From the NCBI GenBank assembly GCA_963746775.1, contig CAVVCK010000002.1:139571-203570 (forward strand): DNA of 64,000 bases. Reading direction: 5' to 3'. The stretch's first letter is position 1; every line of letters begins with the position of its first letter. The DNA is from an uncultured bacterium. Lineage in GTDB: Bacteria; Patescibacteriota; JABMPQ01; CAVVCK01. A model generated the notes under the pieces. That model did no database searches. It was given only the letters and a program-made list of their open reading frames with translations, and was not told the origin of the DNA. Shown in pieces: positions 2,918 to 47,727 of this stretch. The translations under genes and the position numbers were made by a program.

Positions 2918-5554
2918 CTATTCTTCCCCCACATAAACCCCACCTCTGAAATTTTCTCCAAAGGCAAAGAAACTAGAATTAATTGCTTTCCCATTACCTT
3001 CAAACATTCTTACCTGCGGACCACCACCATACCCTGCCCCAGTTATTATTTCTGCTAGACCATCTAAATCCACATCACTCACAGCAATATGTGCTCCTAC
3101 CTCCACTCCAGTGCCATAGGCGTTAAATTGTCCTAGAATTGTTTGATCGTTATTATATCTATATACTTTTACCCAGGCTTCACCATCTGATGCTTGAGAA
3201 GCTACTATTTCGTCCTTGCCATCTCCGTCAAAATCCCCTGCCGCTACATTGACACCACCATGAAAATTAGGATGAAAAGCAAAGAATTGTATTGGTTTTA
3301 ATTGTCCGTTTCCTTCAAATACCCTAATCTGTGGACCGCCGCCTCTACCTGCTCCAGCTATTATTTCATCCTTACCATCTTTATCGATATCACCAGCCGC
3401 CACATTAACTCCACCACGAAAATTCTTATCATAGGCAAAAAAACCAGCAGTTATTTTTTGTTTACCTAATTTATCAAATACCCTAATCTGCGGACCGCCG
3501 CCATAGCCTGCCCCAGCAATTATTTCATCTATACCATCTCCATCTAAATCTCCTAAGACTATATTTACTCCGCCACGAAAATTTTTATCATAAGCAAAAA
3601 ATCCAGGATATTTAACTGTGCCATCTTTTTTAAATATTCTAACATGAGGGCCAGCTCCATTGCCTGGTCCGGTAACAATTTCATTTTCTCCATCTCCATC
3701 TACATCACCAGATGCTACTATGACACCTGATCTAATATTTTCAGCATAGGCAAAAAAACTATTTTCTAAATTGCCCGACGTGTTAAATACTCTTACTTGC
3801 GGTCCGCCTGTTGGTCCAGCTCCAGTGATTATAGAAGGAGTACCAGCTGTAATATCAGTAGCTGTTTCTTTTGTGTTGCCTGAGCTATCCTGAACTTTAA
3901 TATTTATATCATGACTACCTTGATTTAGTCCTGATACTGTAAATTTAAAATTTTCTTCACCTGAGTTATAATTTCCATCAAGAGCTGGTACTGCCTGCCA
4001 ATCACCACTACTTAATTGATACCAAATATTTGATATTTTATTAATCGTCGTATTATTCGGATCTACACTATAATAATTATGCACACTGTCTGTATAAGGA
4101 TTAACATTTTTCATTTTACCTACTGTAGCTCTACCACTAACAGTATAAGTACCATTACTGTTTTCTTCTCTGCTGGTTATAGCTATAACAGGCTGAACAT
4201 CTAATATATCTATAATATTATCTCCATCACTATCCCTCCAGCCTATTTGTTCGGCAGCATACTTATCTAAGGAGTTTTGTTGGTAAGGATATACTCCTCC
4301 TCGCATTATGCTTAACTCATTGATAGCACAACCTCCACTATTAGAATTATATTCACTATTTTGATTAGGCGCCCCTATATAACCAGCTGTTTTAGTACAA
4401 TCTTGATTTGCTGCATAATATTGATCTAGCGCATAAAAAGTATGGCCTGTTTCATGAGCTACAATTGCTTCCATATTATTTATGCCATAAACATCATTAT
4501 CATAAGTCATAACCATAAAAGGACCTCCATAATAAGAATAAGCAAATTTACCATCCTGAAAATCACCATCAGCATCATTCTTGCTATCAGTTACAAAAAT
4601 AGTAAATCCCCAGTCTGAATTATCGTTTTTAATCATATCATTATCAAAAGCTAGAGTATTATAAAAATAATCATCGCTTTGATAATTAAAATTACTCATA
4701 ATTTGATTTATCCACAATCCTTGCTGTGCTGTACCCGTGAAAGAAGTTCTATTAATAGGCTCATAGGAAGTTTTAGCCCTATCATCTGTCCTGCCAAAAT
4801 AAGAATGATAAGTAAAGGTTAAATTGATATTCCTCTTTTTAGCTTGCTCAAACCACCAATTTAACCCGCTTTGAATCTCACTCACTACCTGAGTTTCCCT
4901 GGCAGCATCCCAATTTTCAGTTGAGGCATCATAACCCCCTATACTTTCCGGTAAAATTATAGCTACTGACACTTTGCCGGCCATGTATTCTGCTACATCA
5001 TAAAAACTGGCACCATAAGAAGATTCGCCTGGTCCACCAATATTGTTATTTCTTAAGATCTTCGGAAAAGATAGAGCATCATCATTTATTGGCTTAAAAT
5101 CATTTTCTTTTAAATCAACAGTTTGATTAAAACTTTTATTCCAAACATTAAACATCAATTGATAATCTTCACTATAGCTATTAACATCATCAATTTTATT
5201 ACTATAAATATTTTTAATTCTGCTATCATTATCTAAAATTGCTACTATTTCTTTTTGATAATCTAAAATGAATCCATTATTTTCAAATCTATGAGCTATT
5301 TTACCTTTTTTATCTTCAACTATCTTAATAATATCATTCATTTCATCTCTATTGTCTTCATTTAATACAACCAAAACATTTTTATTTAGTATAACACTAG
5401 CATTTGTATTTTTATAATTAAAAATAACTGATATAAATAAAATAAATATTATAAAAAATATAAAATATTTTAAACTAGCTGTTATTTTGTCCGCCTCTGA
5501 CGGCGGATCTGCCGATAGAGATAGATTATCTTGTTTTTTTGTTATTTTGTCCAT
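2918..5554 (-). CDS. secreted/membrane-anchored zinc metalloprotease (HExxH, M64-like motif) with C-terminal FG-GAP beta-propeller repeats
   Basis: 878 aa with an N-terminal TM helix (FIFFIIFILFISVIF). VAHETGHTFYALDQYY fits HExxH.....D.Y as in IgA-peptidase-like M64. The C-terminal ~350 aa hold 6-7 repeats of FFAY...GDxDGDGxDEI..GAG.GGGP.VRVF, which is the FG-GAP type. Confidence 0.55.
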   Translation of the reverse strand: MDKITKKQDNLSLSADPPSEADKITASLKYFIFFIIFILFISVIFNYKNTNASVILNKNVLVVLNEDNRDEMNDIIKIVEDKKGKIAHRFENNGFILDYQKEIVAILDNDSRIKNIYSNKIDDVNSYSEDYQLMFNVWNKSFNQTVDLKENDFKPINDDALSFPKILRNNNIGGPGESSYGASFYDVAEYMAGKVSVAIILPESIGGYDASTENWDAARETQVVSEIQSGLNWWFEQAKKRNINLTFTYHSYFGRTDDRAKTSYEPINRTSFTGTAQQGLWINQIMSNFNYQSDDYFYNTLAFDNDMIKNDNSDWGFTIFVTDSKNDADGDFQDGKFAYSYYGGPFMVMTYDNDVYGINNMEAIVAHETGHTFYALDQYYAANQDCTKTAGYIGAPNQNSEYNSNSGGCAINELSIMRGGVYPYQQNSLDKYAAEQIGWRDSDGDNIIDILDVQPVIAITSREENSNGTYTVSGRATVGKMKNVNPYTDSVHNYYSVDPNNTTINKISNIWYQLSSGDWQAVPALDGNYNSGEENFKFTVSGLNQGSHDINIKVQDSSGNTKETATDITAGTPSIITGAGPTGGPQVRVFNTSGNLENSFFAYAENIRSGVIVASGDVDGDGENEIVTGPGNGAGPHVRIFKKDGTVKYPGFFAYDKNFRGGVNIVLGDLDGDGIDEIIAGAGYGGGPQIRVFDKLGKQKITAGFFAYDKNFRGGVNVAAGDIDKDGKDEIIAGAGRGGGPQIRVFEGNGQLKPIQFFAFHPNFHGGVNVAAGDFDGDGKDEIVASQASDGEAWVKVYRYNNDQTILGQFNAYGTGVEVGAHIAVSDVDLDGLAEIITGAGYGGGPQVRMFEGNGKAINSSFFAFGENFRGGVYVGEE

Positions 5555-7170
5555 TATTTCATAGTTATTTCTTCTTTTTTTTCTCTTATAAAGGTAAAAA
5601 AATCCTCAGAAATTTCTATAAATGCCTTAAATGGCGCATCTATAATAAAATCTAATATAAATACAAAAATATTAATACGAGAAAAATTTAAAGAAAGCCA
5701 ACGTCCTGCTCTTAAAATTGGAATAGCCAAAAAATCAACCATAGTAGTAATAGCCCCCTCCCGCTCTCCTGCAATAATTAATTCTCTAGCTGATTCCCTG
5801 CTTCTAATTCCAAAAAAAGAAACAAGAGATAAAAATAAAATAAAAATAAATATACCCAAAGCCCCAAAACCAAATCTACTTAAAATGTAAATTATTAAAC
5901 CAAAAGAAACAGCATAAGTAATAATATAGAAAAAATTAAATAAAATATTGGAAAATATATTTCTAGTAACAGATGTTTTTATTTTTTGAGCCAAAATGTT
6001 TTCTTCTTCTTCGTATATTATTCTTCTAATATTATCTATAATATTTTCAGTATTTTTTTCCTTGGGTACTCTAATTGATAGGAGTATTAAAAACAATAAA
6101 ATAGGATGAAAAATAACATTAATAATAAGCGGTTTATAGTCAAAGGCTGATGCAAAATACATATCATAAGGTACTTCAATAGCTAGAGCTAAAAGCATTT
6201 TAGTTACAAAAATATAAATAATACTTCTAACCCCGCTGCGTTTTAACTTTGCCCTGGTATCACTATATTTTTCTTCACAGGCTTCTTTGGATTCTTCGGT
6301 TAAAGTTTTAACATTACTCAATATATCTTCAATATCTTCTCCACCTTTTTCTAAAATATCTCTTAAAATAACAAAAGAAGGCAAATATTTTTTTACCACA
6401 GTAATTAATCTACTGGACAAAGGGTGATCAATTTGATCCTCAATAGTCTGATTTAAAAATTCTATATTAGAAGCTATTTCATCTATTATTTCCCCCGAAG
6501 GACTGCCTTTCCAATGCGGATAATATAAATCTATTAGACGATAAGTGATTATTTCTCTATCAGATTTAAGAAGTGCTCTTTGAATAGCAATATATATCTG
6601 AATACTTTTTTCTTCTTTGGTTATTTTACCAGACCAAGCTATATTTTCACTCATCACTTCATACATAAAATCAGCCATAGCTTCATCTTTAACACGCGAA
6701 GCAAATATTTCTTCTATTTCGCAAGCAGCAATGCCCAATATCCAATCCATATAATCTTTTTTTTCATTTTCAGGTTTTTCGCTTTTATTGTGATAGCTAT
6801 TTAATAATAAAATATACTTATTTATTATTTTCTCAACTTTACTAATTTTATTCTCTGAAACAATTTCATTTTCTAAATATCCACCTCTGATTAATTCAAA
6901 AATCATTGGTTCTGAAATCTTTTGAGCACTGCTTTGATTTGTCAGCCTTCTTTTCAATACTCTTTTTATAGCATTTTTTCTTAAAAGATGCTCTTCTTTA
7001 TAATCAATAACGTTTCTAATTTTTTCATACAAAAAAGCAAGTTTAGAAACTGTCCTATTAACTTTTATTTTTGGCGATGCATTTTCTTTCTTGTCTTCTT
7101 TTTTTCTTTCAAAAGCTTGAATTAACTTTTCAGTAGGTTTGGTTAAAGTTCTATATTCGTCTTGTAGCAT
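5554..7170 (-). CDS. hypothetical protein, soluble N-terminal region plus C-terminal multi-pass membrane domain
   Basis: 538 aa. The first ~330 aa are charged and helical; after that there are at least 4 hydrophobic helices. Its stop overlaps the start of the downstream protease gene by 1 nt, suggesting translational coupling. No diagnostic motif was recognised. Confidence 0.45.
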   Translation of the reverse strand: MLQDEYRTLTKPTEKLIQAFERKKEDKKENASPKIKVNRTVSKLAFLYEKIRNVIDYKEEHLLRKNAIKRVLKRRLTNQSSAQKISEPMIFELIRGGYLENEIVSENKISKVEKIINKYILLLNSYHNKSEKPENEKKDYMDWILGIAACEIEEIFASRVKDEAMADFMYEVMSENIAWSGKITKEEKSIQIYIAIQRALLKSDREIITYRLIDLYYPHWKGSPSGEIIDEIASNIEFLNQTIEDQIDHPLSSRLITVVKKYLPSFVILRDILEKGGEDIEDILSNVKTLTEESKEACEEKYSDTRAKLKRSGVRSIIYIFVTKMLLALAIEVPYDMYFASAFDYKPLIINVIFHPILLFLILLSIRVPKEKNTENIIDNIRRIIYEEEENILAQKIKTSVTRNIFSNILFNFFYIITYAVSFGLIIYILSRFGFGALGIFIFILFLSLVSFFGIRSRESARELIIAGEREGAITTMVDFLAIPILRAGRWLSLNFSRINIFVFILDFIIDAPFKAFIEISEDFFTFIREKKEEITMK

Positions 7171-14533: not shown

Positions 14534-15724
14534 TTATAGTTTATGCCCCATCCTATCCTTCTTAGTTTTTAAATACTTCTTATTATACTTATTAGCTTTT
14601 ATTTTAACTGGAACAACTTTATTGATTTCTAACCCATACCCTTCTAACCCTATGACCTTACATGGATTATTAGTCATTAAATTAATCGATGTAAGCCCTA
14701 AATCTGTTAAAATTTGTGCCCCGATCCCGTAGTCTCTTAAATCACATTTATAGCCTAGCTTCTTATTGGCATCTACGGTATCCAACCCCCGATCTTGCAA
14801 ACCATAAGCTTTTAATTTTGCTTCCAGTCCAATTCCTCTTCCTTCTTGTCTCATATATAGAATTACTCCCTGCCCTTTCTCTTGAATTATTTTCATAGCT
14901 TCTTGTAATTGTTCCCCACAATCACATCTTTTGGAATAAAAAACATCCCCAGTTAAACATTCCGAATGCACCCTTACCAAAATATTTTTTTTATTTTTTA
15001 CCTGACCCTTTATTAAGGCTAAATGTAAATAATTATCAATTTTTGACTCATAAAGCTTAATTCTAAATTCTCCAAAATCTGTAGGAAGTTTTGTCTCAAC
15101 AACTTTTTTTATTAATTTTTCACGCGACTGTCTATACCTAATCAAATCAGCTATCGATATTATTTTTAATTTGTGCAGTTTAGCAAATTTTCTCAATTCA
15201 GGAAGTCTTGCCATTGTTCCATTTTCATTCATAATCTCACATATTACTCCAGCAGGATATAATCCAGATAGTCTTGCTAAATCAACAGCGGCTTCCGTAT
15301 GTCCGGCTCTTTTTAATACCCCGCCTTCTTTAGCACTTAAGGGAAATAAATGCCCAGGACGAGCTAAGTCTTTGGGTTTAGTTTTTGAACTTATTAAAGC
15401 TTTAACTGTCTTAGCTCTATCAGAAGCAGATATCCCTGTAGTTGTTCCCATTTTTACATCAACAGATACTGTAAAAGCAGTTCCATGTACATCCTCATTT
15501 TTCTGCAGCATGGGATTAATATCAAGCTCACTTAATCTCTTAGCCTCCATAGGCATACATATTAATCCTCTGCCAAAACACGCCATAAAATTTATGGCTT
15601 TACTGTTTGCATATTTTGCAGCCACTATTAAATCACCTTCGTTTTCTCTATCTTCATCATCAACGACTATTATAAATTTGCCTGATTTAAAATCTTTTAT
15701 GGCTTGTTGTATAGTGTTTAACAT
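14534..15724 (-). CDS. ribBA: bifunctional 3,4-dihydroxy-2-butanone-4-phosphate synthase / GTP cyclohydrolase II; start placed at internal Met (tracked ORF extends to 15808)
   Basis: RibB motifs [11 protein letters not shown] and RAGHTEA, then RibA C..CDCG zinc motif and [10 protein letters not shown]. The first 28 codons of the tracked ORF are hydrophobic junk that overlaps an intergenic repeat element. Met29 ([12 protein letters not shown]) fits RibB N-termini. Confidence 0.85.
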
Positions 15725-15750
15725 ATTTATGATATGAAAATTTGTTATTT

Positions 15751-15860
15751 GGAAAATAGAAATTAGTAATAAATACTTGAAATTAGAAAATAGTTTATCA
15801 ATTCCCATTTTCTATTTTCTATTACCATTTTCCAACTTCTAAATAGCTATTTTCCTTCTT
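15751..15860 (-). repeat. ~110-bp AT-rich intergenic repeat element, copy 1 (paralogous to 22215-22324)
   Basis: Read on the minus strand both copies begin AGGAAAATAG(C/T)TATTT(A/G)GAA. They share ...TAAT.GAAA.TAGAAAATAG...TATTTTCTAATTTC.AGT, and each contains an internal inverted repeat gaaattagaaaatag/ctattttctaatttc. Confidence 0.5.
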
Positions 15861-16932
15861 TTACAAATCCCCTCACCATCAAATTATCCTCCAATCTCTT
15901 AATTTCAACATCCTTTAACTTTAAAATCTTATCAAGCTTATCTAAAATTGGCAATTCTCCTTTTCCAAACATTTCCAAAGCTATAAATAAATATATTTCA
16001 TCAATCAGCTTTTGATTTATAAATTCAGTAGCAGTTTTTTGTCCTCCTTCAACTAATAAGCTAATAATTTTTAACTTACCTAATTCTTTTAATAATCTTT
16101 TTAAATCAAATTTATTATTTTTAATATCTAACTCTAAAAATCTTATCCCCTTTCTTTCCAGCTGCTTAATTTTATTAGATGCTAAATCTTTTTTTACAAC
16201 CATAACAGTTCCCTTTCGCAAAACCTTAGATTTTAAATCAATTTTTAAATTAGGATCTAAAATTATTGGAATAATTTTACTTTTACTATTTTTTAATCTC
16301 ACATTTAGTTCGGGGTTGTCATTCTTAATAGTATTTATGCCCACTAAAATAGCATCTATGCTACTTCTTATTTTATGAACATATTCTAAAGATTTTTTAT
16401 TAGTTATATATTTATCACTGGAATGAGTAATTTTACCATCCAAACTCATCCCACTTTTCCAAATTATATAAGGCCTACCAGTTTTTATATATTTAAAAAA
16501 ATATTTATTTAAATCAATCGCTTCTTTTTTCATTAAGCCTAATTCAGCTTCAATATTATTTTCTCTTAATTTTTTTATTCCCCTACCGTTCACTTTTTTA
16601 TTTGGATCTTTACAGGCTACTATAACTTTCTTAATTTTTCTTTTTATAATTTCATTAACACAAGGAGGAGTATTCCCAAGGTGGCAACATGGCTCTAAAT
16701 TAACATATAAGATTGAGCCATTTATTTTATTTTTATTACCTCGATTTATAGCATCTTCTATAGCTTCAATTTCCGCATGATTCGAGCCATATTCTTTATG
16801 ATATCCTTGACCAATTATCTTATTATTTCTAATTAAAACAGCACCAACTAAAGGATTTGGTGAAACTTCACCTTCACCCAATTTAGCTAGTTCTATTACT
16901 TTTTCCATTATAGTCTTATCTTTATCAATCAT
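15847..16932 (-). CDS. ribD: bifunctional riboflavin biosynthesis deaminase/reductase
   Basis: 361 aa. The CMP/dCMP-type zinc deaminase motifs HAEIEAIE and PCCHLGNTPPC are followed by a reductase (RibG-like) domain. It is adjacent to ribBA. Confidence 0.85.
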   Translation of the reverse strand: MIDKDKTIMEKVIELAKLGEGEVSPNPLVGAVLIRNNKIIGQGYHKEYGSNHAEIEAIEDAINRGNKNKINGSILYVNLEPCCHLGNTPPCVNEIIKRKIKKVIVACKDPNKKVNGRGIKKLRENNIEAELGLMKKEAIDLNKYFFKYIKTGRPYIIWKSGMSLDGKITHSSDKYITNKKSLEYVHKIRSSIDAILVGINTIKNDNPELNVRLKNSKSKIIPIILDPNLKIDLKSKVLRKGTVMVVKKDLASNKIKQLERKGIRFLELDIKNNKFDLKRLLKELGKLKIISLLVEGGQKTATEFINQKLIDEIYLFIALEMFGKGELPILDKLDKILKLKDVEIKRLEDNLMVRGFVKEGK

Positions 16933-17042: not shown

Positions 17043-17456
17043 ATGCTGCCCCTTCAAAAACAAAAAAACTATGGTTTTACCTTAGTTGAACTACTAGTAG
17101 TGATAGCTATTATTGGTATTTTGGCTTCTTTGATGTATGTTTCTTTTGTTAGAACCAAACAAAAAGGTCAAGATGCTAGTATTAAAAGTGACTTAAGACA
17201 AATTGCTCTAGCTATGGAAATGGCTTATGACCACAATCAAGCCTACCTCACTTCTGAAAATATCCCCGCTTCTATTACAGTTGATGGTAATGAATATTTG
17301 AGGAATATTCCAGAAAACCCACAAGGCAATAATTATGACTGGACTAATAATATAGAAAATAGTCAAACATATTGCGCAGGCTCAGATTTGAAATTAGAAG
17401 ATTATTTTAGGTGTGATGAAAATGGGTGTAAGGAAACTACAAATGTTTGTCCTTAA
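17043..17456 (+). CDS. type IV pilin / pseudopilin (prepilin-type N-terminal cleavage-methylation domain)
   Basis: 137 aa. NYG|FTLVELLVVIAIIGILASL gives a class III signal with Gly-1, Phe+1, Glu+5 and a hydrophobic helix. C-terminal Cys pair. Confidence 0.75.
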   Translation: MLPLQKQKNYGFTLVELLVVIAIIGILASLMYVSFVRTKQKGQDASIKSDLRQIALAMEMAYDHNQAYLTSENIPASITVDGNEYLRNIPENPQGNNYDWTNNIENSQTYCAGSDLKLEDYFRCDENGCKETTNVCP

Positions 17457-17609: not shown

Positions 17610-20098
17610 CTAATTCACTCCATGCCAATTTTCTATAACTGCTATATCTGCTCCGTTTCTTAAGGTTTCATCGCCAAAAGCAAAGAAATTAGGCCATGTC
17701 CTCCATTTTCCAGTGGGCTCAAAAGCTAGCACTTGCGGCCCATTAGAACCTATAGGGGAAATTAAAAGTTCATCTTTGCCATCAAGGTCAATATCACCTG
17801 GAATATTCTTAAAGTTTCCTCTAACATTCTGTTGGTAAACCCACCAGAAATTCTTTCTAGCACCATTCTTATCAAAAACATTAACTTGAGAAGAGCCATT
17901 ATTGGGAGTAGTGTAAATTCTATCTTCTATGCCGGCAGCAGTTAAACCCTGGTTTATAGGAGCATCATAAGCCCAAAAGTCTTTCTTAAGAGTCCCACCT
18001 ACGGTATAGATCCAGACCTTGGGTTCAGCTACACCATGATTAGGGGTAACTAATAATTCTTCTGCCCCGTCATCATACTGGAATGTTCCTAAGTTGCAGC
18101 CATTAGCGCCATATGGAGCATCAAATTGATTAATTAATTCCCAGTTATCTACGCCAGTAGCATCTTTAAATATTTTAACGCGTGGACTGTAATCTCCTGT
18201 GAGACAAGCTGCTATGTCATCTTGAAAACCATCATTATCAAAATCTCCGGAAACCATAGAAAGACCATCTCTAATAGAGCTGGTATTAGCTTTATCATCG
18301 GGTTTTTGGAAAAGGAACATTTGTCCTTTAAGTACTAGAGAACCATCTTCTCTGAGGCCCATAACTCTTGCTTGAGGACCACCATTATTAATCGCAAAGA
18401 TTACAAACTGATCCTTTACTCCATTATTGTTTTGATCAATGGACACTATGCCTGCTCCACCAAGATAAGAAGGTGGGAAAAGACCTTCGTTAATTTTAAC
18501 ATCCGTTGCATTACCATGTCTATCATAAGCCCAAAGACGAGTTGTCTCTCCTGGACCGGAGGTGGTGAGGATTTTGGGGGAGAGGATGGGGGTAAGATCA
18601 GTATCAGTATCTGTATAGTATCAGTATCAGTATCAGTATCAGTATCTGTATCAGTTGTATCTGTGTCATCGCCTGTGGAAGTATCTAGAATGATAGTATC
18701 TGATATGATACTACTTGCTCCTTGAGCATTGCCTATTCTTGCATAGACTGTTTTTGTGCCATCTCCTGTAGTTAAGGTGTGAGTGGTCGTTGCACTAAAT
18801 GGTATGGCTGTACCATCTGATAAATCTGATTGGTTGCCTATTATCATGTAGGTAGCACCGCTATAGGATGAAAAAGTTAGGTCTACTTCTCTGATAGTGG
18901 TAGTGGAGGCTGCGGAGTTTATGGAGAGAGTGGGGTTGGAGGGGGATGTCGAGGTGGTGGCGTATTTAAGGGAGCCGGCTGTTTCATCATAATAGCTAAT
19001 GTGTAGATTATCTGATGAGTCAAGAGCGATAGAAGTATATAACCCAACACTATCAGCACCACCATTATCTACTACTGTACTTACCCAGCTACCTGATTGG
19101 TTGGTGGAATATTTTAGATCACCATCTGTAAAATCACCATAGCTAATGTGTACCTTATCCGAAGAGTCGAGAGCTATAGAAGTACAAAAACTAACATCAT
19201 TAGTACCTCCTCCATTATCTACTACTGTACTTACCCAGCTACCTGATTGGTTAGTGGCATATTCTAGAACACCATCTGAAGCATCACCATAGCTAATATG
19301 TACATTATCTGAAGAGTCGATAGCGATAGAAGTATCATATCCAACAGCATGAAGACTATCATCTACTGCTGTACTTACCCAGCTACCTGATTGGTTAGTG
19401 GCATATTTTAGATCATTATCTGTATAATCTTGATAGCTAATATGTACCTTATCTAATGAGTCGAGAGCTATGGAAGTATAAATTCCAACTCTATTAGCAC
19501 CACCATTATCTACTATCTCATTTTCAAAACTACCTGATTGGTTAGTAGCATATTTTAGATCATGATCTGTAAAATCACCATAGCTAATGTGTACCTTATC
19601 CGAAGAGTCGAGAGCTATAGAAGTAAAAATTCCAACACTATTAGCACCACCATTATCTACTATCTCATTTTCAAAACTACCTGATTGGTTAGTAGCATAT
19701 TTTAAATCACCAGCTATTTCATCACCATAGCTAATATGAACATTATCTGAAGAGTCGAGAGCTATGGAAGTATAAACTTCACTATGAATTTCAGTAGTAC
19801 CTACTCCATTATCTACTACTGTACTTACCCAGCTACCTGATTGGTTGGTAGTATACATAAGATTGCCTAATTCATGATTATAATAGCTTATATGAACATA
19901 ACCCAAAGAATCTATTGCTATTGAATCAAATTCACCATAATTAGTGGAACTATAATCTATATCTTCTATTGTCCAAGAAGCAGCTTTTACTTGATTTGGA
20001 AAACTTAAATTAATTACACCACATAGAGATGTTACTGTTATGATTGATATTAGCAGTAGGAATGATTTAGAGAAAAATGTTTTAATTCTTTTTTTCAT
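17610..20098 (-). pseudogene. large secreted surface protein (signal peptide, ~8 tandem ~44-aa beta-propeller-like repeats, (DT)n linker, shared FG-GAP-like C-terminal domain) interrupted by a 1-nt frameshift in a (GATACT)n tract near 18615
   Basis: Tracked ORFs 18446-20098 (550 aa) and 17610-18446 (278 aa, GTG start) are in different frames. The downstream frame reads open upstream as YYTDTDTDLTPILSPKILTTSGPGETTRLWAYDRHGN...GGAGIVSIDQNNNG. That is collinear with the paralogs at 20245-22173 and 29776-32829 (PKIITTSGPGE...GGAGIVSIDSNNNG). The unit gtata at 18611-18615 is one base short of the surrounding gtatca hexamers. Restoring one base fuses the two ORFs in frame. Confidence 0.55.
18601..18660. 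repeat. hexanucleotide microsatellite (GTATCA/GATACT)x~9, encodes (Asp-Thr)n linker; contains the frameshift
   Basis: Plus strand gtatca gtatct gtata gtatca gtatca gtatca gtatca gtatct gtatca. Confidence 0.8.
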
Positions 20099-20187
20099 AT
20101 TTTATTTATTTTAATAAATTATTATGCTTTATTATACTTCAATTTGTTAAATATGTCATTAATGAGAGCTGTGGATAAAATTTCAAT

Positions 20188-20244: not shown

Positions 20245-22173
20245 CTAATTAACCCCATGATAATTATCTATTACCGCTATCCCCACTCCATTGCGAAGTG
20301 TCTCATCGCCAAAAGCAAAGAAATTAGGCCAGGTTCTCCATTTGCCTGAGGGCTCATAGGCTAGAACTTGGGGACCGTTAGAGCCTATAGGAGAGACTAA
20401 CAATTCATCGATGCCATCTAAATCGATATCTCCGGCAACATTGGTATAATCTCCTCTAATATGTTCCTGATAGGCCCACCAGAAGTTCTTTCTATTACCC
20501 TCTCTGTCAAAAACATTTATTTGGGAAGAACCGTTATTGGGAGTAGTATAGATTCGATCTTGAATACCAGAAGCTGTAAGTCCTGACTGAACACCTGCAC
20601 CATAGGCAGCAAATTGTTTTTGCAAAGTTCCATTTATCCAGTAAATATAAACATTAGGTGAAGCCATACCATGATTAGGAGTAACCAGAAGATCATTTCC
20701 CCCGCTATCATATTGAAAAGTGCCCAAATTACAGCCTACATTACCAAATGGTGCGCTAAATTCATGGGCTAGGTTCCAATTATCTATGCCTCTAACATCA
20801 GTATATACTCTAACTATAGGAACTCTATTCCCTGTTAAACAAAAAGCCGCATCATCTTGATAGCCATCATTATCAAAATCTCCACTAGTGGCTGATAAGC
20901 CATCTCTAATGTTAGAATCAAAAACAAATTGCTGTCCTAAGTAAGAAATAGTTTTATCTTCTTTAATGCCTATTACTCTGGCCTGAGGGCCACCGTTATG
21001 GATCGCGAAAATTAAGGCTTGATCCTTGACGCCATTGTTATTGCTATCGATAGATACTACTCCAGCACCACCAGCGTAGGAATCAGGGAAAAGTCCGGTA
21101 ATTACATCCCCCGTAGCAACACCTTTTCTATCATAGACTTGAGCCCTGGTTACCTCTCCGGGACCAGAAGTAGTGATTATTTTAGGAGAAATAGTAGCAC
21201 CAGATTCGGTAGTACGGGAGGCAGTGTCTTCATCTGAAGAGCTATCATCGGAGGAGTCATCGGAATCGTCTGAATCGTCTGAGCTATTACCAGCTAATTG
21301 CGCCATCATACTCCAAAAAGCCTGGCCTTTCTGATAGCAGTTAAAACAATGAGTATGGGCACAGCAGGTCTCGGGAGTACAATAACTGCAATAAGGGCTA
21401 CTGGAATGGCTGGCGCACCAGGTAGCACACCAGCTGCATTTTTCTGTTTCATTGGGATAAAAATTACCATCCGGGTCATAGCTTTCGATATCAGCAAAAT
21501 CATACAAAACTTTATTATTAGCTCGAGCTAGAGTTCTTATCTGTTCGTTGCGAGCATCGGTATTGGTTTTATCGCCATATGGCCAGTCATCATCATATAA
21601 ATGGCTAGTCATATAAACAAAGGTTACATTGGGATAATCTGCCTCTAATTTTCCCATTTCACTAAAATATCTATTAATACCTGCTTCTGTCGCATCTTGT
21701 ACTCCTGCACACCAAGACCACATTACTACATTAATAGATGAATCTGCATCTAATGCTTCACGGGTAATATAATACCAATCAGTGTAATCATAGGGATTCC
21801 AATCGCCTGTATGACCCAAATCAGTCTCGTAATGATCATCAATATATAACGAACCTGATTCACTGCCTGAGGTGTGATATTTATAAATACCCCCCTCAAC
21901 TTCTTCTATTCTGGAAAGTCCGGTAATAACTTGGCTTCCATGAGAAGTATGATTATAATATACCCTCAAATTTGATTTAGCATTATTGATAGCCGTCTCC
22001 GAAAGACCGCTTAGCGTTGCATCATTATGGTCAATAATTAAAGGGCTTGTTCGAGCTGCTTTTGCTTCTTTGGGCGTTTTAGAAAAAAATCCTCCCCAAA
22101 AAAACAAAGCTGTTACTAGAAAAAATACCATGCTATATACAAGATACTTTTTCTTTCTAAACATTTTTTTCAT
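20245..22173 (-). CDS. secreted surface protein: signal peptide, N-terminal Cys-rich domain of unknown function, acidic (SDD)n linker, shared ~300-aa FG-GAP-like C-terminal domain
   Basis: 642 aa. The N-terminus MKKMFRKKKYLVYSMVFFLVTALFF is a signal/anchor. A Cys cluster follows (CSWCATWCASHSSSPYCSYCTPETCCAHTHCFNCYQ), then an SDDSDDSDDSSDDSSSDED linker. The C-terminal domain is about 60-70% identical to those of the 17610 and 29776 genes and ends with the same final motif (HGVN or EVN). Confidence 0.6.
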   Translation of the reverse strand: MKKMFRKKKYLVYSMVFFLVTALFFWGGFFSKTPKEAKAARTSPLIIDHNDATLSGLSETAINNAKSNLRVYYNHTSHGSQVITGLSRIEEVEGGIYKYHTSGSESGSLYIDDHYETDLGHTGDWNPYDYTDWYYITREALDADSSINVVMWSWCAGVQDATEAGINRYFSEMGKLEADYPNVTFVYMTSHLYDDDWPYGDKTNTDARNEQIRTLARANNKVLYDFADIESYDPDGNFYPNETEKCSWCATWCASHSSSPYCSYCTPETCCAHTHCFNCYQKGQAFWSMMAQLAGNSSDDSDDSDDSSDDSSSDEDTASRTTESGATISPKIITTSGPGEVTRAQVYDRKGVATGDVITGLFPDSYAGGAGVVSIDSNNNGVKDQALIFAIHNGGPQARVIGIKEDKTISYLGQQFVFDSNIRDGLSATSGDFDNDGYQDDAAFCLTGNRVPIVRVYTDVRGIDNWNLAHEFSAPFGNVGCNLGTFQYDSGGNDLLVTPNHGMASPNVYIYWINGTLQKQFAAYGAGVQSGLTASGIQDRIYTTPNNGSSQINVFDREGNRKNFWWAYQEHIRGDYTNVAGDIDLDGIDELLVSPIGSNGPQVLAYEPSGKWRTWPNFFAFGDETLRNGVGIAVIDNYHGVN

Positions 22174-29775: not shown

Positions 29776-32700
29776 CTAATTCACCTCATACCAATTATCA
29801 ATAACCGCAATACCTACTCCATTTCTTAAACTTTTATCACCAAAGGCAAAGAAATTAGGCCAAGTTCTCCATTTGCCAGTAGACTCAAACGCTAGCACTT
29901 GGGGTCCATTAGATCCAATAGGTGAAATTAATATTTCATCCTTACCATCCAAATCAATATCTCCAGGAACATTTTTGAAATCACCTCTGATGTGCTGCTC
30001 ATACGCCCACCAGAAATTTTTACGATTGCCATCTTTATCAAAGACATTAATTTGAGATGAACCATTATTGGGAGTAGTATAGATCCTCTCCCCTATACCA
30101 GAAGGAGTAAGACCAGATTGCACACCTTCGCCATAAGCTGGAAAATATTCTTTTAAAGTTCCACCTACCGTATAGATATAAACATAAGGATCTGCTGGAC
30201 CATGGTTAGGTGCTACTAATATCTCCGAAGGGCCAGAATCATATTGAAATGTCCCTACGTTACAACCAACATTGCCAAAAGGCGCTGTGAAATCACCTAT
30301 TTTTTCCCAGTTATCAACTCCTTTTATATCTCTATAGATTCTAACATTTGGTGTTCGATCACCAGTTAAACAAGTGGCAATATCATCCGCATAACCATCG
30401 CCATCAAAATCACCAGCAGCCATTGATAAGCCATCTCTAATTGAACTATCAAAAACAAACATTTGTCCCAATAAATCTAAATCATTATCAGATTTTTGGG
30501 CCAATATTCTGGCTTGTGGTCCGCCATTTTTTAGAGCAAATATTACCATTGCATCTTTAAGTCCATTATTATTAGAATCAATAGAAACTATACCTGCTCC
30601 ACCTTTATAATTTGGTGGAAAAATATTATAAATCACTGATCCGGCAACATTACCTTGACGATCATAGGCTTGTAATTTAGATATTTCCCCCGGCCCTGAA
30701 GTAGTAATAATTTTAGGATCTATTGGTATATTTGTAATTGTGAAAGACCAGCTGCTTGATACTAAATTGTTATTATTATCAGCTGCTTCAATATTAACAA
30801 TTACTACCTCATTATAATCAAAATTTTCATCTGGATTTATACTTACCTCATAACCATTAGAATCATTAGGAGTCATAGTTATACTATATCCGGTTTGAAA
30901 AGTACTATTTACTATTACCTCTTCACTACTAATAGTTACGTGAATAGTAGCTGGATTTATACCAGCATTATCATCATTAATTGAAAATGTGATATTAGTA
31001 TCTTTAGCAATATCAGCAGCTCCATCAGCAGGATCTTGTCCGGTGATTTCAGGAGCATTAGTATCTCCACAACCAGGTATTACTCGATCGATACTACTAC
31101 ATTGTCCTCCTTGATTTATTTCAACTGACATTAAGGCTTGATTAGTCGCTACACAAGTAGTACTAGTTGATCCATATAAATCAGCACAAGCAGTATTAAG
31201 TGCATTATAGGCGCCATTAAAATCCATATTAGTAGTAAAATAATTAGTCAGGGCTCTATAAAAAATTTGTTCCATTTTATCACGTCCAATAGCACTTATT
31301 GTACAAGTATTATTAGTACCTCCTTCAGCCATTAAATAAGCAGCGTGGGAAATAACAGTACTATTATGATGGACACCACCATTATCATCATCACCACAAT
31401 ACATAAAATCACTATAAAATCTATCTGGCTGAGGACCAAGAATATCACTTACACTCTTCGGATCTGCTAAACTTCTAATAGGCCCTTGAAATGTTCCTGC
31501 ATTTATATTTTCACCCATTAACCAATTACCATCACCTGTCACATAATCCTCTACCTGAGCTCCAAAAATATCCGAATAAGCTTCATGTAATGCTCCTGAT
31601 TCATTTAAATAAGTAAGACCTCCGGGAATAGAATAATGAACTACCCCATGACTATACTCGTGAGCAGAGACATCTATGTCAACCATCCCATCACAAAAAT
31701 TAATCGAAAATCCATCGAAAAAGGCGTTTGGACAATCAAAAGCAGGATCAACCAAGGCTATTGGATCCAAATAAACCCAACCATCTGAATTTTCTACAGC
31801 GCTATAAGTCCCATCTCCTAATCCTCCCTGATTATTAGCTCCATTTCTGGAAAATCTTTCTTGAAAATAATTATAAGTAGAATTCATTATGCTATACAAA
31901 TTATCCGTATCTTTTAGCCCATAGATGGCATCTGGATTATTACCTCTGGCAGCTTGTCCTTCAGATCTTCCATAAATATAACCCATATAAAGAGTATCCA
32001 ACCCACAGCCAGCTCCGCCAGAATAAGGATAGTAATAACAATCTATTATCCTTCTATTTATATTGTAAGTTCCTGTAATTTGATAAACTAAACTTCCGCT
32101 ATGTGCATCTATATAAAAATATTCATGGCTTACCGGCTCCTTAATTAATTCTACTTCATAAACTAAATAATTCTTATTATCAGTCTTATTTTCAATAATC
32201 CCTTTATTAAATATTGTTAATTCATTCTTTAAAACTTTTACATTATTGGATGTTTTAAATTGTTTCTGCCAACTTTCCATAGCTTTATTCACCGCTTCTT
32301 CTTTTGATATATCGGGATTTGTATCTATATTAATATCAGGCACAATAATGCCATTAGCTGAAGAAATTTCTAGATTTTCTTTAACATGAACTGACATTTG
32401 TCCGGCAAAAACTGGAATATCTTTATATCTTTGGCTATACCAAAAATGTTTCATTCCTAAATTATCTTCTTTTTTATCTACTAACTTAGTTTCTTCTCTA
32501 GAATTACTTAAACCAAAATAACCACCATATTCAGCTACAAATTGATTAGCCATAGCTGCTGGTGTAAGATTTTCACTCGGATATTCTGCCAAAGTTATAC
32601 TTTGATTTTTACCTAAAGAATTAATAAAGGTTATTTTGCCGGTATTTTTATCCACAGCATATTCAAAATTATGCTTGTCTTTAAATTCTATCCCCTTGAT

Positions 32701-32829
32701 ACTCTTATTTATATTCGGATTATTATTAGCCAAAACTAAACCAGAACATATTATTAACGACAAACATAAAATAGTAACAAAAAGGCACAGGATTTCGGCC
32801 TTTTTAGCTAATTTTGTTAGTTTATTCAT
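29776..32829 (-). CDS. secreted thermolysin-like (M4 family) zinc metalloprotease with Ig-like middle domain and shared FG-GAP-like C-terminal domain
   Basis: 1017 aa with a signal peptide. VSAHEYSHGVVHYSIPGGLTYLNESGALHEAYSDIFG matches the thermolysin HExxH...NESGAINEAISDIFG motif (third ligand ExxxD). An Ig-like segment follows (PEITGQDPADGAADIA...). The C-terminal 300 aa are paralogous to the 17610 and 20245 genes. Confidence 0.7.
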   Translation of the reverse strand: MNKLTKLAKKAEILCLFVTILCLSLIICSGLVLANNNPNINKSIKGIEFKDKHNFEYAVDKNTGKITFINSLGKNQSITLAEYPSENLTPAAMANQFVAEYGGYFGLSNSREETKLVDKKEDNLGMKHFWYSQRYKDIPVFAGQMSVHVKENLEISSANGIIVPDINIDTNPDISKEEAVNKAMESWQKQFKTSNNVKVLKNELTIFNKGIIENKTDNKNYLVYEVELIKEPVSHEYFYIDAHSGSLVYQITGTYNINRRIIDCYYYPYSGGAGCGLDTLYMGYIYGRSEGQAARGNNPDAIYGLKDTDNLYSIMNSTYNYFQERFSRNGANNQGGLGDGTYSAVENSDGWVYLDPIALVDPAFDCPNAFFDGFSINFCDGMVDIDVSAHEYSHGVVHYSIPGGLTYLNESGALHEAYSDIFGAQVEDYVTGDGNWLMGENINAGTFQGPIRSLADPKSVSDILGPQPDRFYSDFMYCGDDDNGGVHHNSTVISHAAYLMAEGGTNNTCTISAIGRDKMEQIFYRALTNYFTTNMDFNGAYNALNTACADLYGSTSTTCVATNQALMSVEINQGGQCSSIDRVIPGCGDTNAPEITGQDPADGAADIAKDTNITFSINDDNAGINPATIHVTISSEEVIVNSTFQTGYSITMTPNDSNGYEVSINPDENFDYNEVVIVNIEAADNNNNLVSSSWSFTITNIPIDPKIITTSGPGEISKLQAYDRQGNVAGSVIYNIFPPNYKGGAGIVSIDSNNNGLKDAMVIFALKNGGPQARILAQKSDNDLDLLGQMFVFDSSIRDGLSMAAGDFDGDGYADDIATCLTGDRTPNVRIYRDIKGVDNWEKIGDFTAPFGNVGCNVGTFQYDSGPSEILVAPNHGPADPYVYIYTVGGTLKEYFPAYGEGVQSGLTPSGIGERIYTTPNNGSSQINVFDKDGNRKNFWWAYEQHIRGDFKNVPGDIDLDGKDEILISPIGSNGPQVLAFESTGKWRTWPNFFAFGDKSLRNGVGIAVIDNWYEVN

Positions 32830-32941: not shown

Positions 32942-35900
32942 CTATTCAATATCAAACACTCGTACCTGTGGACTACCTAATGATCCTGGCATAGTCATCA
33001 CCTCATCCTTTCCATCACCATCAGTATCACCAGCCGCTACCACTGCTCCACCTATATGGCTCGAAGGATAAGCTAAGAATGTTTTCATAATACTTTGATC
33101 CTGCCCTCTATAAATTTTTACCCAGGCCTGCCCTTGCGTTCTTTGTGAAACTATTATTTCTTCTTTGCCATCGCCATCAACATCACCGCCTGCCAAAGAT
33201 AAACCTCCTCGAAAATCAGAAGAAAATGCATAAAAGCCTGGATTTAATCTGACTACTTTATTTGTCAGAGTGTTAAACATCTGTACGTGCGGAGCTCCCA
33301 CTTCCGGCCCAGTTAATATCTCAAATCGGCCATCATTATTAAAATCAGCCGTAGCTAATCTAATTCCTCCTCTAAAATTTTTGTCATAAGCCATTTCCGA
33401 AGCAATTAACTGCCCTTTATAATTATGTACAGTAAAATGCGGTCCACCACCTGCTGCTGCTGCTACAATTATTTCTGGCCGGCCATCCATATTAACATCT
33501 CCGCAAGCAATATTAGCTCCACCTTGAAATTTACCATCTAGTGCAAAAAATCCAGCATTAACTGTTGGCTCCCCTTTAGCATTAAATATTCTGATATGCG
33601 GCCTGCCCCCCTTACCCGGTGCTGTTACAATTTCATCTGTACCATCCATATCTAAATCACAAGTGGCTACTCTAACACCAGACCTTAAATGCTCAGCATA
33701 AGCAAAAAATCTACTTACAACATTTCCATTTCCATCAAAAATAGATACTTGCGGACCAAATCCTTCTGATGTACCCGTAATTATTTCATTAGGGCTAAGT
33801 ACTCCACCTATCACATTCCCAGAATAAATATGGTATCCACCCCGTAATCTTGTATCATAAGCATTAAAATCTAATTTACTTTCTTCTACTTGATCATCAG
33901 GCGGAAGAGAACCATCTTTATTTAAAATTATAAAACATCTTTCACAAATCCCAACTTGTCCATCCAAATTACTTACTTTTACATCATAATAGGCTGGAGG
34001 CATTAAACCAATAGGTGCTTCTACTGTTAATTTATTACTAGCATTAACTAATGTTTTAACAGATGATAATGATCCAAACATAGCAGTTGCTCCATAACTA
34101 AAGTTAGAACCATTAATATTTAACCAAATTGTTTGTGAAGAATTATCAGCTGGCGTATATCTATCTTTTGGTGAAACACTAGTCGGCTTTGGAGCTGGAT
34201 CAACATAAGGCGGTTCATTACCTTCCAGGGAAATTTCTCGAATTAAATCATTCCAATTATCAGCTATATACAACTTATTATGAGCTATATCAGGTAATAA
34301 ACCTTTGGGATTATTAAATCTAGATTCTAAGTTTTTACCATTCTTAAAACCTCTTTCGGTTTTACCGGCTATTGTTCGAACACTTCTTGATTCTATATCC
34401 ATATACTTAACTATTTGACTGCCAACTTCTGTAAAATATAAATTACCATCAGCCCCTACTTTGACATATTCTGGATAAGATAATACTGCTGTAGTACCAA
34501 TAGCATCACGATAACCATTATTACCATTACCAGCTACTGTTGTAACTTCAGTAGTTTCAATTTCTACTCTTCTTATCCGCTGATTATTACTATCAGCTAC
34601 ATATAAATATTTTCCACTTAAATCAATATCAATTCCAAATGGTCGATTAAACTTAGTAGCTATTCCCTTACCATCTGCAAAACCAGCACTTCCCGAGCCT
34701 GCTACTAAAGATGTTTGACCGTCAGCTATTTTTATTTTTCTAATTCTATTATTACCTGTATCTGAAACATATAAATATTCATCATTTGGTGATATTACTA
34801 TTCCTCCGGGTACATTAAATTTTGCCTCTGCCCCATTTCCTTCTGTATATCCATTACATGACTGATTGCAATCAGTTGATCCTCCCCCAGCTACTAGAGA
34901 TGTTTCTAGCGTACTTAAATTAATTTTTCTTATACGATTATTCCATCTATCCGCCACATATAAATTACTGCCAGAACTATCGATCGTTAAACTGGTAATG
35001 TTACTAAATCTAACCCTATCACCATCCCCCTCACGATAAGCATCCACTACACTACCAACAATATGAGTAGTACTGCCATCAGCTATTGTTATTCTTCTGA
35101 TAAAATTATTTTCTGCTAAGTAAATATATTGGCCGTCAGGCGACATAACTAAATCATTAGGCCGGCCTACTTTTGAATCAGCCTTTGAACCAAATTCATA
35201 ATTAAATCTATTTTTACCTGCTACCCGATCTTCTTCAGCTGAAACTGCTTCCTTTTCTTTATGAAATCTTTGAATAGTACCAATACCAGAATTAGCTACA
35301 TAAACATAATCTCCACTAGATGCAATTCCTTTGGGATAATTAACAGTAGACATCGCTGCGTCTTCGGCTAGAGTTGTAACATTGTTATTAGATAAATTAA
35401 TTTCACGAACGTAATCAGAATACCCATCACCATCGGTAACATATAAATAATTGCGGCCGGAATCTAGAGCTACACCAACAATATTTCTAAATTGAGCAGA
35501 AGTTCCAGCACCATCACTATAGCCAGCGCTGCCTGAGCCAGCAATTGTATTTTTTGAACCACTAGCAAGATCAATTTTAACAACTTGATAGCTTCCGCCC
35601 TCAGCTACATATAAATAATTGCCGCTAGAGTCTGTGGTTAATTTTTTAGGTGAACTTACTGAAGCATTAACAATACTCATGGTTCCTCCAGAAGTTGAAA
35701 TTTTTTTCACAGCATTATTGCCAGTATCAGAAATATATAAAGTTGATCCCTTTATGTAAAGACCTTCGGGATAGGATAATCCTTCGGAAACTAGAGTTGA
35801 TACTTGTCCTCCGGATATTTTTTTAATTTTATGATTATACGTATCGGCCACAAATACCGTATCACCTGAGACAGCAATACCCTTAGGTAAAGCAAATTCG

Positions 35901-47655: not shown

Positions 47656-47727
47656 CTCCGAGGGTGGGATTCGAACCCACGACCAATTGGTTAACAGCCA
47701 ACTGCGCTACCACTGCGCTACCTCGGA
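47656..47727 (-). tRNA. tRNA-Asn (anticodon GUU)
   Basis: Minus strand: TCCGAGG-TA-GCGC-AGTGGTA-GCGC-A-GTTGG-CTGTTAA-CCAAT-TGGTC-GTGGG-TTCGAAT-CCCAC-CCTCGGA-G. The acceptor stem is 7 bp, the T-loop is canonical, and the anticodon loop CU-GUU-AA is as expected. CCA is not encoded. Confidence 0.85.

Follow-up and report, generated by a model that had tools for sequence, protein, structure and literature searches.

The minus strand between positions 20098 and 17610 of the 64,000-nt stretch of DNA analysed here (the window) carries one 829-codon gene that is split into two ORFs as deposited. The gene is disrupted by a frameshift, as homology to intact single-ORF relatives runs on in a second frame past one point, and the missing base lies in a hexanucleotide array that encodes an acidic linker. 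The lesion is an ordinary gene-breaking change or a sequencing-consensus error, and very probably not a genetic switch. We give about an even chance to a non-programmed, recent deletion that would be real in the sequenced population and thus present in the cells. For annotation, the 550-aa and 278-aa ORFs are best handled as one disrupted gene, and the 278-aa stand-alone “protein” is very likely not real.

The upstream ORF (18446..20098, minus strand) starts with ATG, ends with a TAG stop at 18448-18446 and encodes 550 aa. Residues 1-494 are authentic and the final 56 aa (18616..18449) are out of frame; the first-pass annotation had put this tail at 44 aa, which is too short. The downstream ORF (17610..18446, minus strand; P0121) encodes 278 aa from a GTG start and is called in the public record, where it is annotated on a 547,535-bp NCBI/ENA contig together with the 642-, 1017- and 361-aa proteins of the window. 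Its frame is open for 336 codons from stop to stop, and the earliest start codon is indeed the GTG at 18446, with no ATG, as had been noted before. In the overlap zone (18449..18616, minus strand) the upstream frame reads as the nonsense tail (IQILILILPPSSPPK...), and the downstream frame encodes the conserved end of the linker and the first propeller blade (TDTDTDLTPILSPKILTTSGPGETTRLWAYDRHGN...GGAGI). If a G is added behind the fifth perfect GATACT unit, the two frames join into one ORF of 829 codons (...DTDTDTDTDLTPILSPKILTTSGPGE...; in-frame junction DTDLTPILSPK). Over its last 324 aa, the repaired protein shares 67% identity with the C-terminal ends encoded by the 642-aa (20245..22173) and 1017-aa (29776..32829) ORFs. 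The repaired ORF is collinear with both of these window paralogs, which bears out the earlier proposals that both ORFs derive from a single surface-protein gene, one following the other, and that a single added base restores the frame. The GTG start comes 56 codons after the beginning of the C-terminal module and corresponds to residue 49, in the fourth strand, of the propeller model. A 278-aa product would therefore lack blade 1 as well as a signal peptide, and the downstream piece cannot stand alone. Upstream of the gene, a promoter-like site (ATGACA-17-TATAAT, 11/12 matches; 20131..20159, minus strand) lies about 33 nt from the ATG at 20098; it is a consensus match only, and such sites are no more frequent in the region than expected by chance. 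On the other side, a pilin-like gene follows downstream of 17610.

The array, a (GATACT)n/GATACA microsatellite that encodes a disordered (Asp-Thr)n linker, was delimited by Tandem Repeats Finder to 18597..18655 on the minus strand (period 6, 10.0 copies, 88% matches, score 97). The first-pass annotation was thus right about its existence but not about its boundaries, for which it had given 18601-18660. The array is the sole sizeable microsatellite of the gene, making up about 2.4% of its length, and the one strong microsatellite of the window. The sequence GATACTGATACT, searched with at most one mismatch, occurs six times, always within the array, against 0.16 occurrences expected by chance. 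Two blocks of the array are out of register by 5 nt, which fixes the position of the lesion: the unit at 18612..18616 (minus strand) has only five nucleotides, ATACA on the coding strand (tgtat on the plus strand), and the missing G is placed between 18616 and 18617, outside any homopolymer. This phase break agrees with the earlier location of the frameshift at a 5-nt unit inside the hexamer array. Acidic low-complexity linkers are common at the position of the array among family members.

The predicted product consists, in order, of a signal peptide, a seven-bladed lectin-like beta-propeller, an Ig-like domain, the acidic linker and a six-bladed FG-GAP-like propeller. The Sec-type signal peptide was read from the sequence at residues 1-39 (MKKRIK...NQVKA|AS; 19982..20098, minus strand); AF2 models residues 11-23 as a helix and assigns a low pLDDT to residues 1-38, and the leader of the homolog P0006 is near-identical. 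The N-terminal propeller (residues 42-382; 18953..19975, minus strand) is built of units of about 49 aa (147 nt) that are also visible as a DNA repeat (Tandem Repeats Finder period 147, 5.8 copies). Its AF2 model has 28 strands with pLDDT mostly above 90, and Foldseek against PDB matched it to 5c9l, 5mxh and 6rg2 (E 5e-15, TM-score on the target 0.71-0.75). As modelled, the fold is closest to the Photorhabdus PLL/PHL fucose lectins, and homologs of this propeller carry PF15892 BNR_4. The Ig-like beta-sandwich (residues 391-471; 18686..18928, minus strand), which contains a GDGTKTVY motif, is delineated by AF2 strands with pLDDT of about 50-56, and the DNA of this region is 82.5% identical to the P0006 gene. 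The C-terminal module of 322 aa (17613..18578, minus strand) was modelled with 24 strands (pLDDT 88.9, pTM 0.89). It scores above the Pfam cutoff for FG-GAP_3 (29.9 against 26.9 bits) and contains DxDxDG-like motifs, and its Foldseek matches are beta-propellers, integrin alpha (alphaV) among them. For both modules, sequence identity to the structurally matching solved structures is 9-14%.

The comparison with orthologs that the first-pass annotation had recommended was run: P0001 (702 aa), P0006 (659 aa, partial) and the 844-aa gene of L162 have matching architecture, are unbroken and are collinear with the repaired ORF. Full-length homologs are single ORFs in every case. A search of 1.84 billion library proteins returned 26 with the C-terminal module at E ≤ 1e-30, counted as one protein per cluster at 50% identity, and all matches with a source name are from Parcubacteria/Patescibacteria. 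The six-bladed propeller is narrowly distributed and forms the C-terminal module shared by a small family of Parcubacteria proteins. At least four genes of the 547-kb genome encode it, and the cargos joined to it comprise a lectin-like propeller, an M4 protease, a domain without Pfam match and Kelch-like repeats. When genome and metagenome contigs were scanned with a degenerate pattern of the junction segment, the family members that turned up (L001, L080) belonged to other species and no locus was conspecific; the bulk of the matches was due to the very common GDGTKTVY Ig-like motif. A homolog search with the same segment was dominated by Asp-Thr low-complexity words and gave no informative relative. 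The exact 550-aa, 642-aa, 278-aa (P0121) and 933-aa (P0147) proteins had no match in the contig index, and exact look-up of the 829-aa protein repaired by one nucleotide returned no ON variant on record. Proteins of 186-278 aa that consist of the C-module alone were weighed as a sign of an independent product and rejected, as P0130 is a truncation at a contig end and P0143 is part of a multiply frameshifted gene in another assembly. We also rejected a foreign origin of the C-rich patches: all surface-protein genes have a raised GC content (0.36-0.40; window 0.316), and since it tracks the content of Pro, Ser, Thr and Gly it is not evidence of transfer.

The C-terminal module has an identical second copy. 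P0147, a third paralog that the first-pass annotation had not noted and that is encoded elsewhere in the same 547,535-bp genome, is an intact 933-aa protein whose C-terminus, compared at the protein level, is identical to that of the focal gene in 322 of 322 residues; its N-terminal part is not encoded in the window. The window paralogs, in contrast, are only 62-64% identical to the focal module in DNA, with a longest identical run of 29 nt, and 67% in protein. Comparison of DNA with orthologs from other species places a mosaic switch point at 18554..18555 (minus strand; TCC GGT|CCA GGA), in the conserved TSGPGE motif and about 62 nt 3' of the frameshift. The 33 nt on the 5' side match the P0006 type at 29 positions and the P0015 type at 20, while the 51 nt on the 3' side match the P0006 type at 22 and the P0015 type at 46. 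The affinity thus changes from the P0006/L001 type to the P0015/P0147 type. An identical tract (at the protein level) in two non-allelic genes whose other paralogs are far more diverged, with a sharp border and differing affinity on either side, is the pattern of gene conversion. From these comparisons, P0147 rather than the focal copy appears to be the donor, since P0147 is 75.7% identical to P0015 overall and the focal module, identical to that of P0147, is 79% identical to the P0015 module. We infer both this direction and the recency of the conversion. The two identical modules themselves show directly that copies within this streamlined CPR genome recombined very recently.

In the explanation that we prefer, a single G would have been lost from one GATACA unit of the linker-coding array, breaking the frame. 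As written, the gene would give a secreted 550-aa protein in which the lectin-like propeller and the Ig-like domain are retained, 56 nonsense residues follow at the end and the second propeller is missing, and the downstream 1 kb would give no useful expressed product. The intact P0147 paralog would recently have overwritten the focal C-terminal module by gene conversion, and the 5' end of the tract would fall within the TSGPGE motif, some 62 nt away from the missing base. The downstream part would then be intact because the conversion refreshed it, and its intactness would not date the frameshift. The deletion may have arisen as a side effect of this recombination, or it may be tolerated since at least three other genes of the genome carry the module.

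The main rival holds that the gene is intact in the cells and that the missing base is a consensus, polishing or assembly artefact, created by merging reads of differing repeat composition or by mis-mapping reads of the P0147 copy at the border of the 1-kb module. We regard this as a serious possibility, somewhat short of an even chance. Read mis-mapping and polishing errors concentrate at just such places as the site of the lesion, which falls within the only strong microsatellite of the window and some 62 nt away from the edge of an exact repeat of about 1 kb (identity known at the protein level). The reading frames on both sides are flawless, which gene conversion would explain equally well for the downstream one. 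Moreover, replication slippage typically adds or removes whole units and would not normally take a single base out of a hexamer array, and an indel of part of a unit would fit a gapped-alignment consensus better than slippage in vivo. There is also a CPR precedent for misassembly at a hypervariable coding repeat (PMC6851277). On the other hand, an array of 59 nt is shorter than any modern read, De Bruijn assemblers invent no k-mers, and no second frameshift was seen in the 64 kb despite many long A/T homopolymers. The window has 62 ORFs and is 87% coding, and the focal gene is the only one that is visibly split; its 152 homopolymer runs (A/T of at least 7, G/C of at least 5) are associated with no further visible breaks. 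Three of the four other pairs of abutting or overlapping same-strand ORFs were compared with Pfam; the fourth pair is 9923-10735/10725-11639. The pairs 23696-24856/24822-25544 and 41671-41994/42000-42305 are complete, separate genes by Pfam; in the pair 5554-7170/2918-5554, the ORF 5554-7170 matched nothing in Pfam, and 2918-5554 carries a hydrophobic N-terminal segment of its own. As no second split gene was present among the pairs checked, we rejected the idea that the assembly is rich in indels throughout.

The readings that give the split a function fare worse. The first-pass annotation had offered an on/off switch in a hypermutable repeat, i.e. a contingency locus whose instability toggles the C-terminal module so that the protein is anchored in some cells and released in others. 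The gene does have a tandem repeat in a surface-protein coding sequence with the frame broken in the tract, and family members repeatedly have acidic repeat linkers at the corresponding site. The unit itself speaks against the idea: with 6 nt, gain or loss of whole units never alters the frame, so such a unit is unable to act as an on/off switch, and the 1-nt loss within one unit could only be reverted by a precise 1-nt insertion. Together with the empty look-up of the repaired protein and the contig scans without conspecific loci, this makes a switch very unlikely. If reads did show heterogeneity of the tract, the locus would be a useful marker of the microevolution of surface proteins in uncultured episymbionts. 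Programmed -1 frameshifting could in principle yield a full-length protein with an altered 17-aa linker and a trans-frame peptide PPK-ILTTSG, since a canonical heptamer, C CCA AAA (X XXY YYZ; 18572..18578, minus strand), precedes the stop in the upstream frame, and slipping back by one nucleotide there would lead into the correct frame. We reject it as very unlikely: the window contains 17 copies of the heptamer where 16.7 are expected, the 82 nt downstream have no unusual structure (MFE -14.6 kcal/mol, shuffle mean -16.5, z = +0.69), the same nucleotides occur in a different frame of the intact P0006 gene, and homologs are all unbroken single ORFs that lack the split two-frame arrangement. 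The heptamer was judged to be a chance by-product of conserved Ser-Pro-Lys-Ile codons. We consider it equally improbable that each ORF yields a functional product of its own, or that the C-terminal part is deliberately maintained as a silent cassette from which other surface-protein genes are supplied by recombination. Stop and start overlap (ATAGTG) with a GGAG 8 nt upstream, and the identical module in another gene shows that copies recombine. The GGAG, however, belongs to the coding sequence of a conserved Gly-Gly-Ala-Gly present in all paralogs, the GTG product would lack the first blade and a signal peptide, the short stand-alone members in databases are contig-end truncations where checked (P0130), and it is P0147 that appears as the donor. 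Lastly, the FG-GAP-like propeller might be a mobile cassette shuffled by gene conversion, with the acidic linker as a hinge and frameshifted copies as intermediates or reservoirs; we consider this unlikely, though less so than the preceding three. If it were true, the family would be a system that diversifies the cargo displayed or released on the episymbiont surface, and the acidic repeat linker would be a hinge prone to recombination and mutation in Parcubacteria surface-protein genes.

Compared with known systems, the gene resembles a frameshift pseudogene or truncated paralog in a multigene surface-protein family, as homology continues across the break, redundant paralogs are present in the genome and the downstream piece has neither an independent start nor an export signal. 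It differs in that the downstream module is undecayed, with a protein sequence that matches the module of an intact paralog at 100% of positions; since conversion keeps the module fresh, the age of the lesion cannot be read from it. In contingency loci such as lic1 of Haemophilus influenzae (CAAT repeats) and opa of Neisseria (CTCTT repeats) the units are not multiples of 3, and changes in copy number toggle the frame. The focal gene shares with these the tandem repeat in a surface-protein coding sequence and the loss of frame in the tract, but its unit is 6 nt long and the lesion is a partial unit. In -1 frameshifting of the dnaX and IS-element type, the zero frame contains an X XXY YYZ heptamer ahead of its stop. 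The focal heptamer likewise is in the zero frame, 5' of the stop and leads into a continuing frame, but it occurs at chance frequency and has no stimulatory structure and no conserved split. At the level of domains, the C-terminal module has a fold similar to that of integrin-alpha FG-GAP propellers and scores above threshold for FG-GAP_3, but has about six blades; the N-terminal module shares its fold with the seven-bladed Photorhabdus PLL/PHL lectins at a sequence identity of 11-13%, so that the likeness is one of fold. A literature search for phase variation or gene conversion in CPR bacteria returned one precedent, the PTD-repeat gene of a Gracilibacterium, where a hypervariable coding repeat was misassembled at first and nucleotides vary from cell to cell (PMC6851277). 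Both genes come from CPR bacteria, contain short coding repeats (in Gracilibacterium for an Asp/Thr/Pro-rich coil) and encode a predicted extracellular protein (PMC6851277). The Gracilibacterium array, however, is long, has 9-nt units and is in frame under purifying selection (PMC6851277), whereas the array described here is 59 nt long, has 6-nt units and is frameshifted.

The focal gene is read on the minus strand (20098..17610) as two abutting ORFs: an upstream ORF of 550 aa with an ATG start (20098..18446) and a downstream ORF of 278 aa with a GTG start (18446..17610). Between them lies a microsatellite at 18597-18655 (period 6, 10.0 copies, 88% matches, score 97 in Tandem Repeats Finder), the sole strong short-unit microsatellite in the 64-kb window. 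GATACTGATACT, allowing at most one mismatch, occurs six times against 0.16 expected, every time inside this array. The coding-strand sequence of the array is GAT ACA ACT GAT ACA (GAT ACT)x5 ATACA (GAT ACT)x2 GAT CTT. The blocks of perfect units are offset in register by 5 nt, so one unit (18612-18616) is without its G, between 18616 and 18617, and putting this base back gives one ORF of 829 codons. The first-pass annotation had described a frameshift here, and the register break and one-base repair bear it out. It also correctly placed the only start of the downstream part at the GTG at 18446, the first possible one in a frame that is open for 336 codons from stop to stop, but the upstream ORF ends in 56 aa of nonsense sequence (18616..18449), where the annotation gave 44 aa. 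The break is publicly recorded: NCBI/ENA lists the 278-aa product as a called protein (P0121) on a contig of 547,535 bp, and the 642-, 1017- and 361-aa proteins of the window are on a contig of equal length.

The reading of both pieces as one gene is right, as three relatives that share its architecture are single ORFs with which the repaired protein is collinear: P0001 (702 aa, 52% identity, 90% of the query covered), P0006 (partial, from a Parcubacteria MAG, 55% identity, 82% covered) and an 844-aa protein adjoining P0006 in L162, a locus of a relative. The signal peptide of P0006 is near-identical to that of the repaired protein and its linker is unbroken (...LDTSTDTDDDSDDSDDSSTSTPSLSPKILTTSGPGQ...). 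AlphaFold models built on family alignments place a signal helix before a 7-bladed propeller (residues 42-382, confident), followed by an Ig-like sandwich (residues 391-471, lower confidence), a disordered Asp-Thr linker and, over the C-terminal 326 aa, a confidently modelled all-beta module with 24 strands (pLDDT 88.9, pTM 0.89), which in the model is consistent with about six blades. Two C-rich patches of the coding strand (18540-18600 and 18840-19020, minus strand) have a GC content of 0.44-0.50 in a window of 31.6% GC, and both code for Pro/Ser/Thr-rich stretches between domains. The junction codons CTC TCC CCC AAA ATC CTC ACC ACC TCC GG have near-identical nucleotides in the genes of P0006 and of L001, a relative's locus (both from other species), despite the rarity of C-ending codons.

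The C-terminal propeller, hereafter C-module (17613-18578, minus strand), has an exact counterpart. P0147, a 933-aa paralog that belongs to the 90% cluster of P0121 and is on a contig of likewise 547,535 bp, combines Kelch-like repeats and Big_5 domains with an acidic linker and a C-module, and over its final 322 residues it matches the focal downstream frame at every position (322/322). Its N-terminal part has no match anywhere in the window, and P0147 is therefore encoded by another gene, at a different place in the genome. The three C-modules in the window (17613-18578, 20248-21192 and 29779-30723, all minus strand) share only 62-64% DNA identity, with identical runs of at most 29 nt. P0147 is 75.7% identical overall to its ortholog P0015 from another metagenome and the shared C-module is 79% identical to that of P0015, which suggests P0147 as the original carrier of the module and the focal copy as the overwritten one. 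In the 33 nt around the codons for Pro-Lys-Ile-Leu-Thr-Thr-Ser-Gly, 29/33 positions agree with the P0006 gene and 30/33 with L001, against only 20/33 with the P0015 gene, whereas in the following 51 nt the P0015 gene matches at 46/51 and the P0006 gene at only 22/51. This supports a mosaic switch at TCC GGT / CCA GGA (~18555/18554), ~62 nt 3' of the frameshift. Identity to the P0006 gene is 82.5% at the DNA level in the upstream Ig-like region and 64-68% in the propeller. Together, these sequence comparisons point to recent non-allelic gene conversion between P0147 and the focal gene in a streamlined CPR genome. As conversion would refresh the downstream frame, its flawless state says nothing on the age of the frameshift and is no evidence of sequencing error either. 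In two relatives, a pyruvate phosphate dikinase (PPDK) gene is followed directly by family genes, in the order PPDK, 844-aa gene, P0006 in L162 (GCA_013203555.1) and PPDK, P0015 in L163 (JGI Ga0395805_0032071). The window has no PPDK gene, and the P0147 locus therefore probably adjoins PPDK elsewhere in the genome.

Programmed readings of the break are, all together, improbable. Slipped-strand mispairing gains or drops whole repeat units. Since the unit is 6 nt, such copy-number changes never shift the frame, and the on/off switch considered in the first-pass annotation is unsupported: the lesion is one base within a unit, with no easy route of reversal. An exact look-up of the repaired 829-aa protein found no intact version of the focal gene in the public record, and pattern scans of genome and metagenome contigs with the junction segment found no conspecific locus. 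A -1 slip on the upstream-frame codons CCC CCA AAA, an X XXY YYZ heptamer at 18578-18572, would reach the correct frame. Chance predicts 16.7 copies of this heptamer in the window and 17 are present, the 82-nt stretch after it has no more stable a fold than shuffled versions (z = +0.69), the same nucleotides are read in frame as Ser-Pro-Lys-Ile in the unbroken P0006 gene, and the homologs are all single ORFs; we treat the heptamer as coincidence. As for a stand-alone 278-aa product, its start codon (GTG, 18446) overlaps the TAG stop, and a GGAG lies 8 nt before it. This GGAG is part of the sequence for a Gly-Gly-Ala-Gly conserved in all paralogs, and the product would begin within the fourth strand of the propeller model (residue 49) and thus be without the first blade and an export signal. 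Short database entries that share this start are artefacts: P0130 begins 55 nt away from the end of its contig, and P0143 is part of a gene with two more frameshifts in another assembly. A smaller gene in L161 (3100-4732; ENA ERZ1757541 contig_6554, 1.05 Mb), which shares the architecture of the focal gene (BNR-like blades, a Ser/Asp linker and a C-module), has two frameshifts in its N-terminal repeats, while polA and uvrB beside it are intact. It is either another disrupted family member or a case of repeat-specific assembly errors.

We give an even chance to a real, recent, non-programmed deletion. The focal gene is the only visibly split one among the 62 ORFs of the window (87% coding). Four other ORF pairs abut or overlap on the same strand, and the three of them that were checked against Pfam show no apparent split gene. 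No other break is visible in the window despite its 152 homopolymer runs, the lost base is not part of a homopolymer, and the array, at 59 nt, is shorter than any read. These points count for a deletion. A consensus error remains a serious contender at somewhat below even chance, as the lesion falls within a repeat that makes up ~2.4% of the gene length and near the border of a ~1-kb exact repeat, where reads of the other copy may mis-map. The P0147 copy also has a GAT-rich acidic linker, and polishing may introduce partial-unit indels. There is also a CPR precedent for misassembly at a coding repeat: the first assembly of PTD, a hypervariable repeat of 9-nt units in a predicted extracellular protein of a CPR bacterium, was wrong (PMC6851277). 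The lesion itself is ordinary.

Large secreted repeat proteins beyond the focal family are abundant in the region: an 878-aa protein with many FG-GAP/VCBS-like repeats (2918-5554), a 538-aa ORF (5554-7170) that shares 1 nt with it and has no Pfam match and a 1084-aa protein with NHL repeats and FG-GAP (32942-36196), all on the minus strand. Convergent with the focal gene, the stretch 17043-17456 (plus strand) encodes a type IV pilin-like protein that has an N-terminal methylation motif (PF07963). The riboflavin biosynthesis genes ribBA (DHBP synthase and GTP cyclohydrolase II) and ribD (14534-16932, minus strand) are somewhat notable in a 547-kb CPR genome. A 352-aa ORF (38495-39553) contains an in-frame 60-nt tandem repeat (38925-39106, minus strand; 3.0 copies, 95% identical), and a tRNA (47656-47727, minus strand) is the sole Rfam match of the window at the gathering threshold.

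Beyond the original finding, we consider the evidence of recent gene conversion between two C-module genes in a 547-kb genome and the presence of a clade-restricted C-terminal propeller on several cargo proteins the most interesting. At least four genes of the genome carry a C-module of ~322 aa, six-bladed and FG-GAP-like, ending in ...VIENWHGVN, and two of them are further window members at 67% protein identity. Their N-terminal cargos are unrelated: the lectin-like propeller, a domain without Pfam match (642-aa ORF), an M4 thermolysin-like protease (1017 aa) and the Kelch-like repeats with Big_5 of P0147. Among 1.84 billion sequences, 26 representatives (one per 50%-identity cluster) match the C-module at E <= 1e-30, almost always at the C-terminus, and every member with a source name is from Parcubacteria/Patescibacteria; the family is very narrow and clade-restricted. 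Across it the module is joined to SGNH lipase, M4 protease, Big_5, Calx-beta and metallophosphoesterase, commonly with an acidic low-complexity linker directly before ...PKILTTSGPGE. A possible role of the C-module is clade-specific surface anchoring or host binding. The C-module passes the threshold for Pfam FG-GAP_3 (29.9 bits, threshold 26.9). The nearest folds to the N-terminal propeller are the Photorhabdus PLL/PHL fucose lectins (E 5e-15, TM-score 0.71-0.75), followed by BNR-type hydrolases, and the C-module matches generic propellers, integrin alpha among them.
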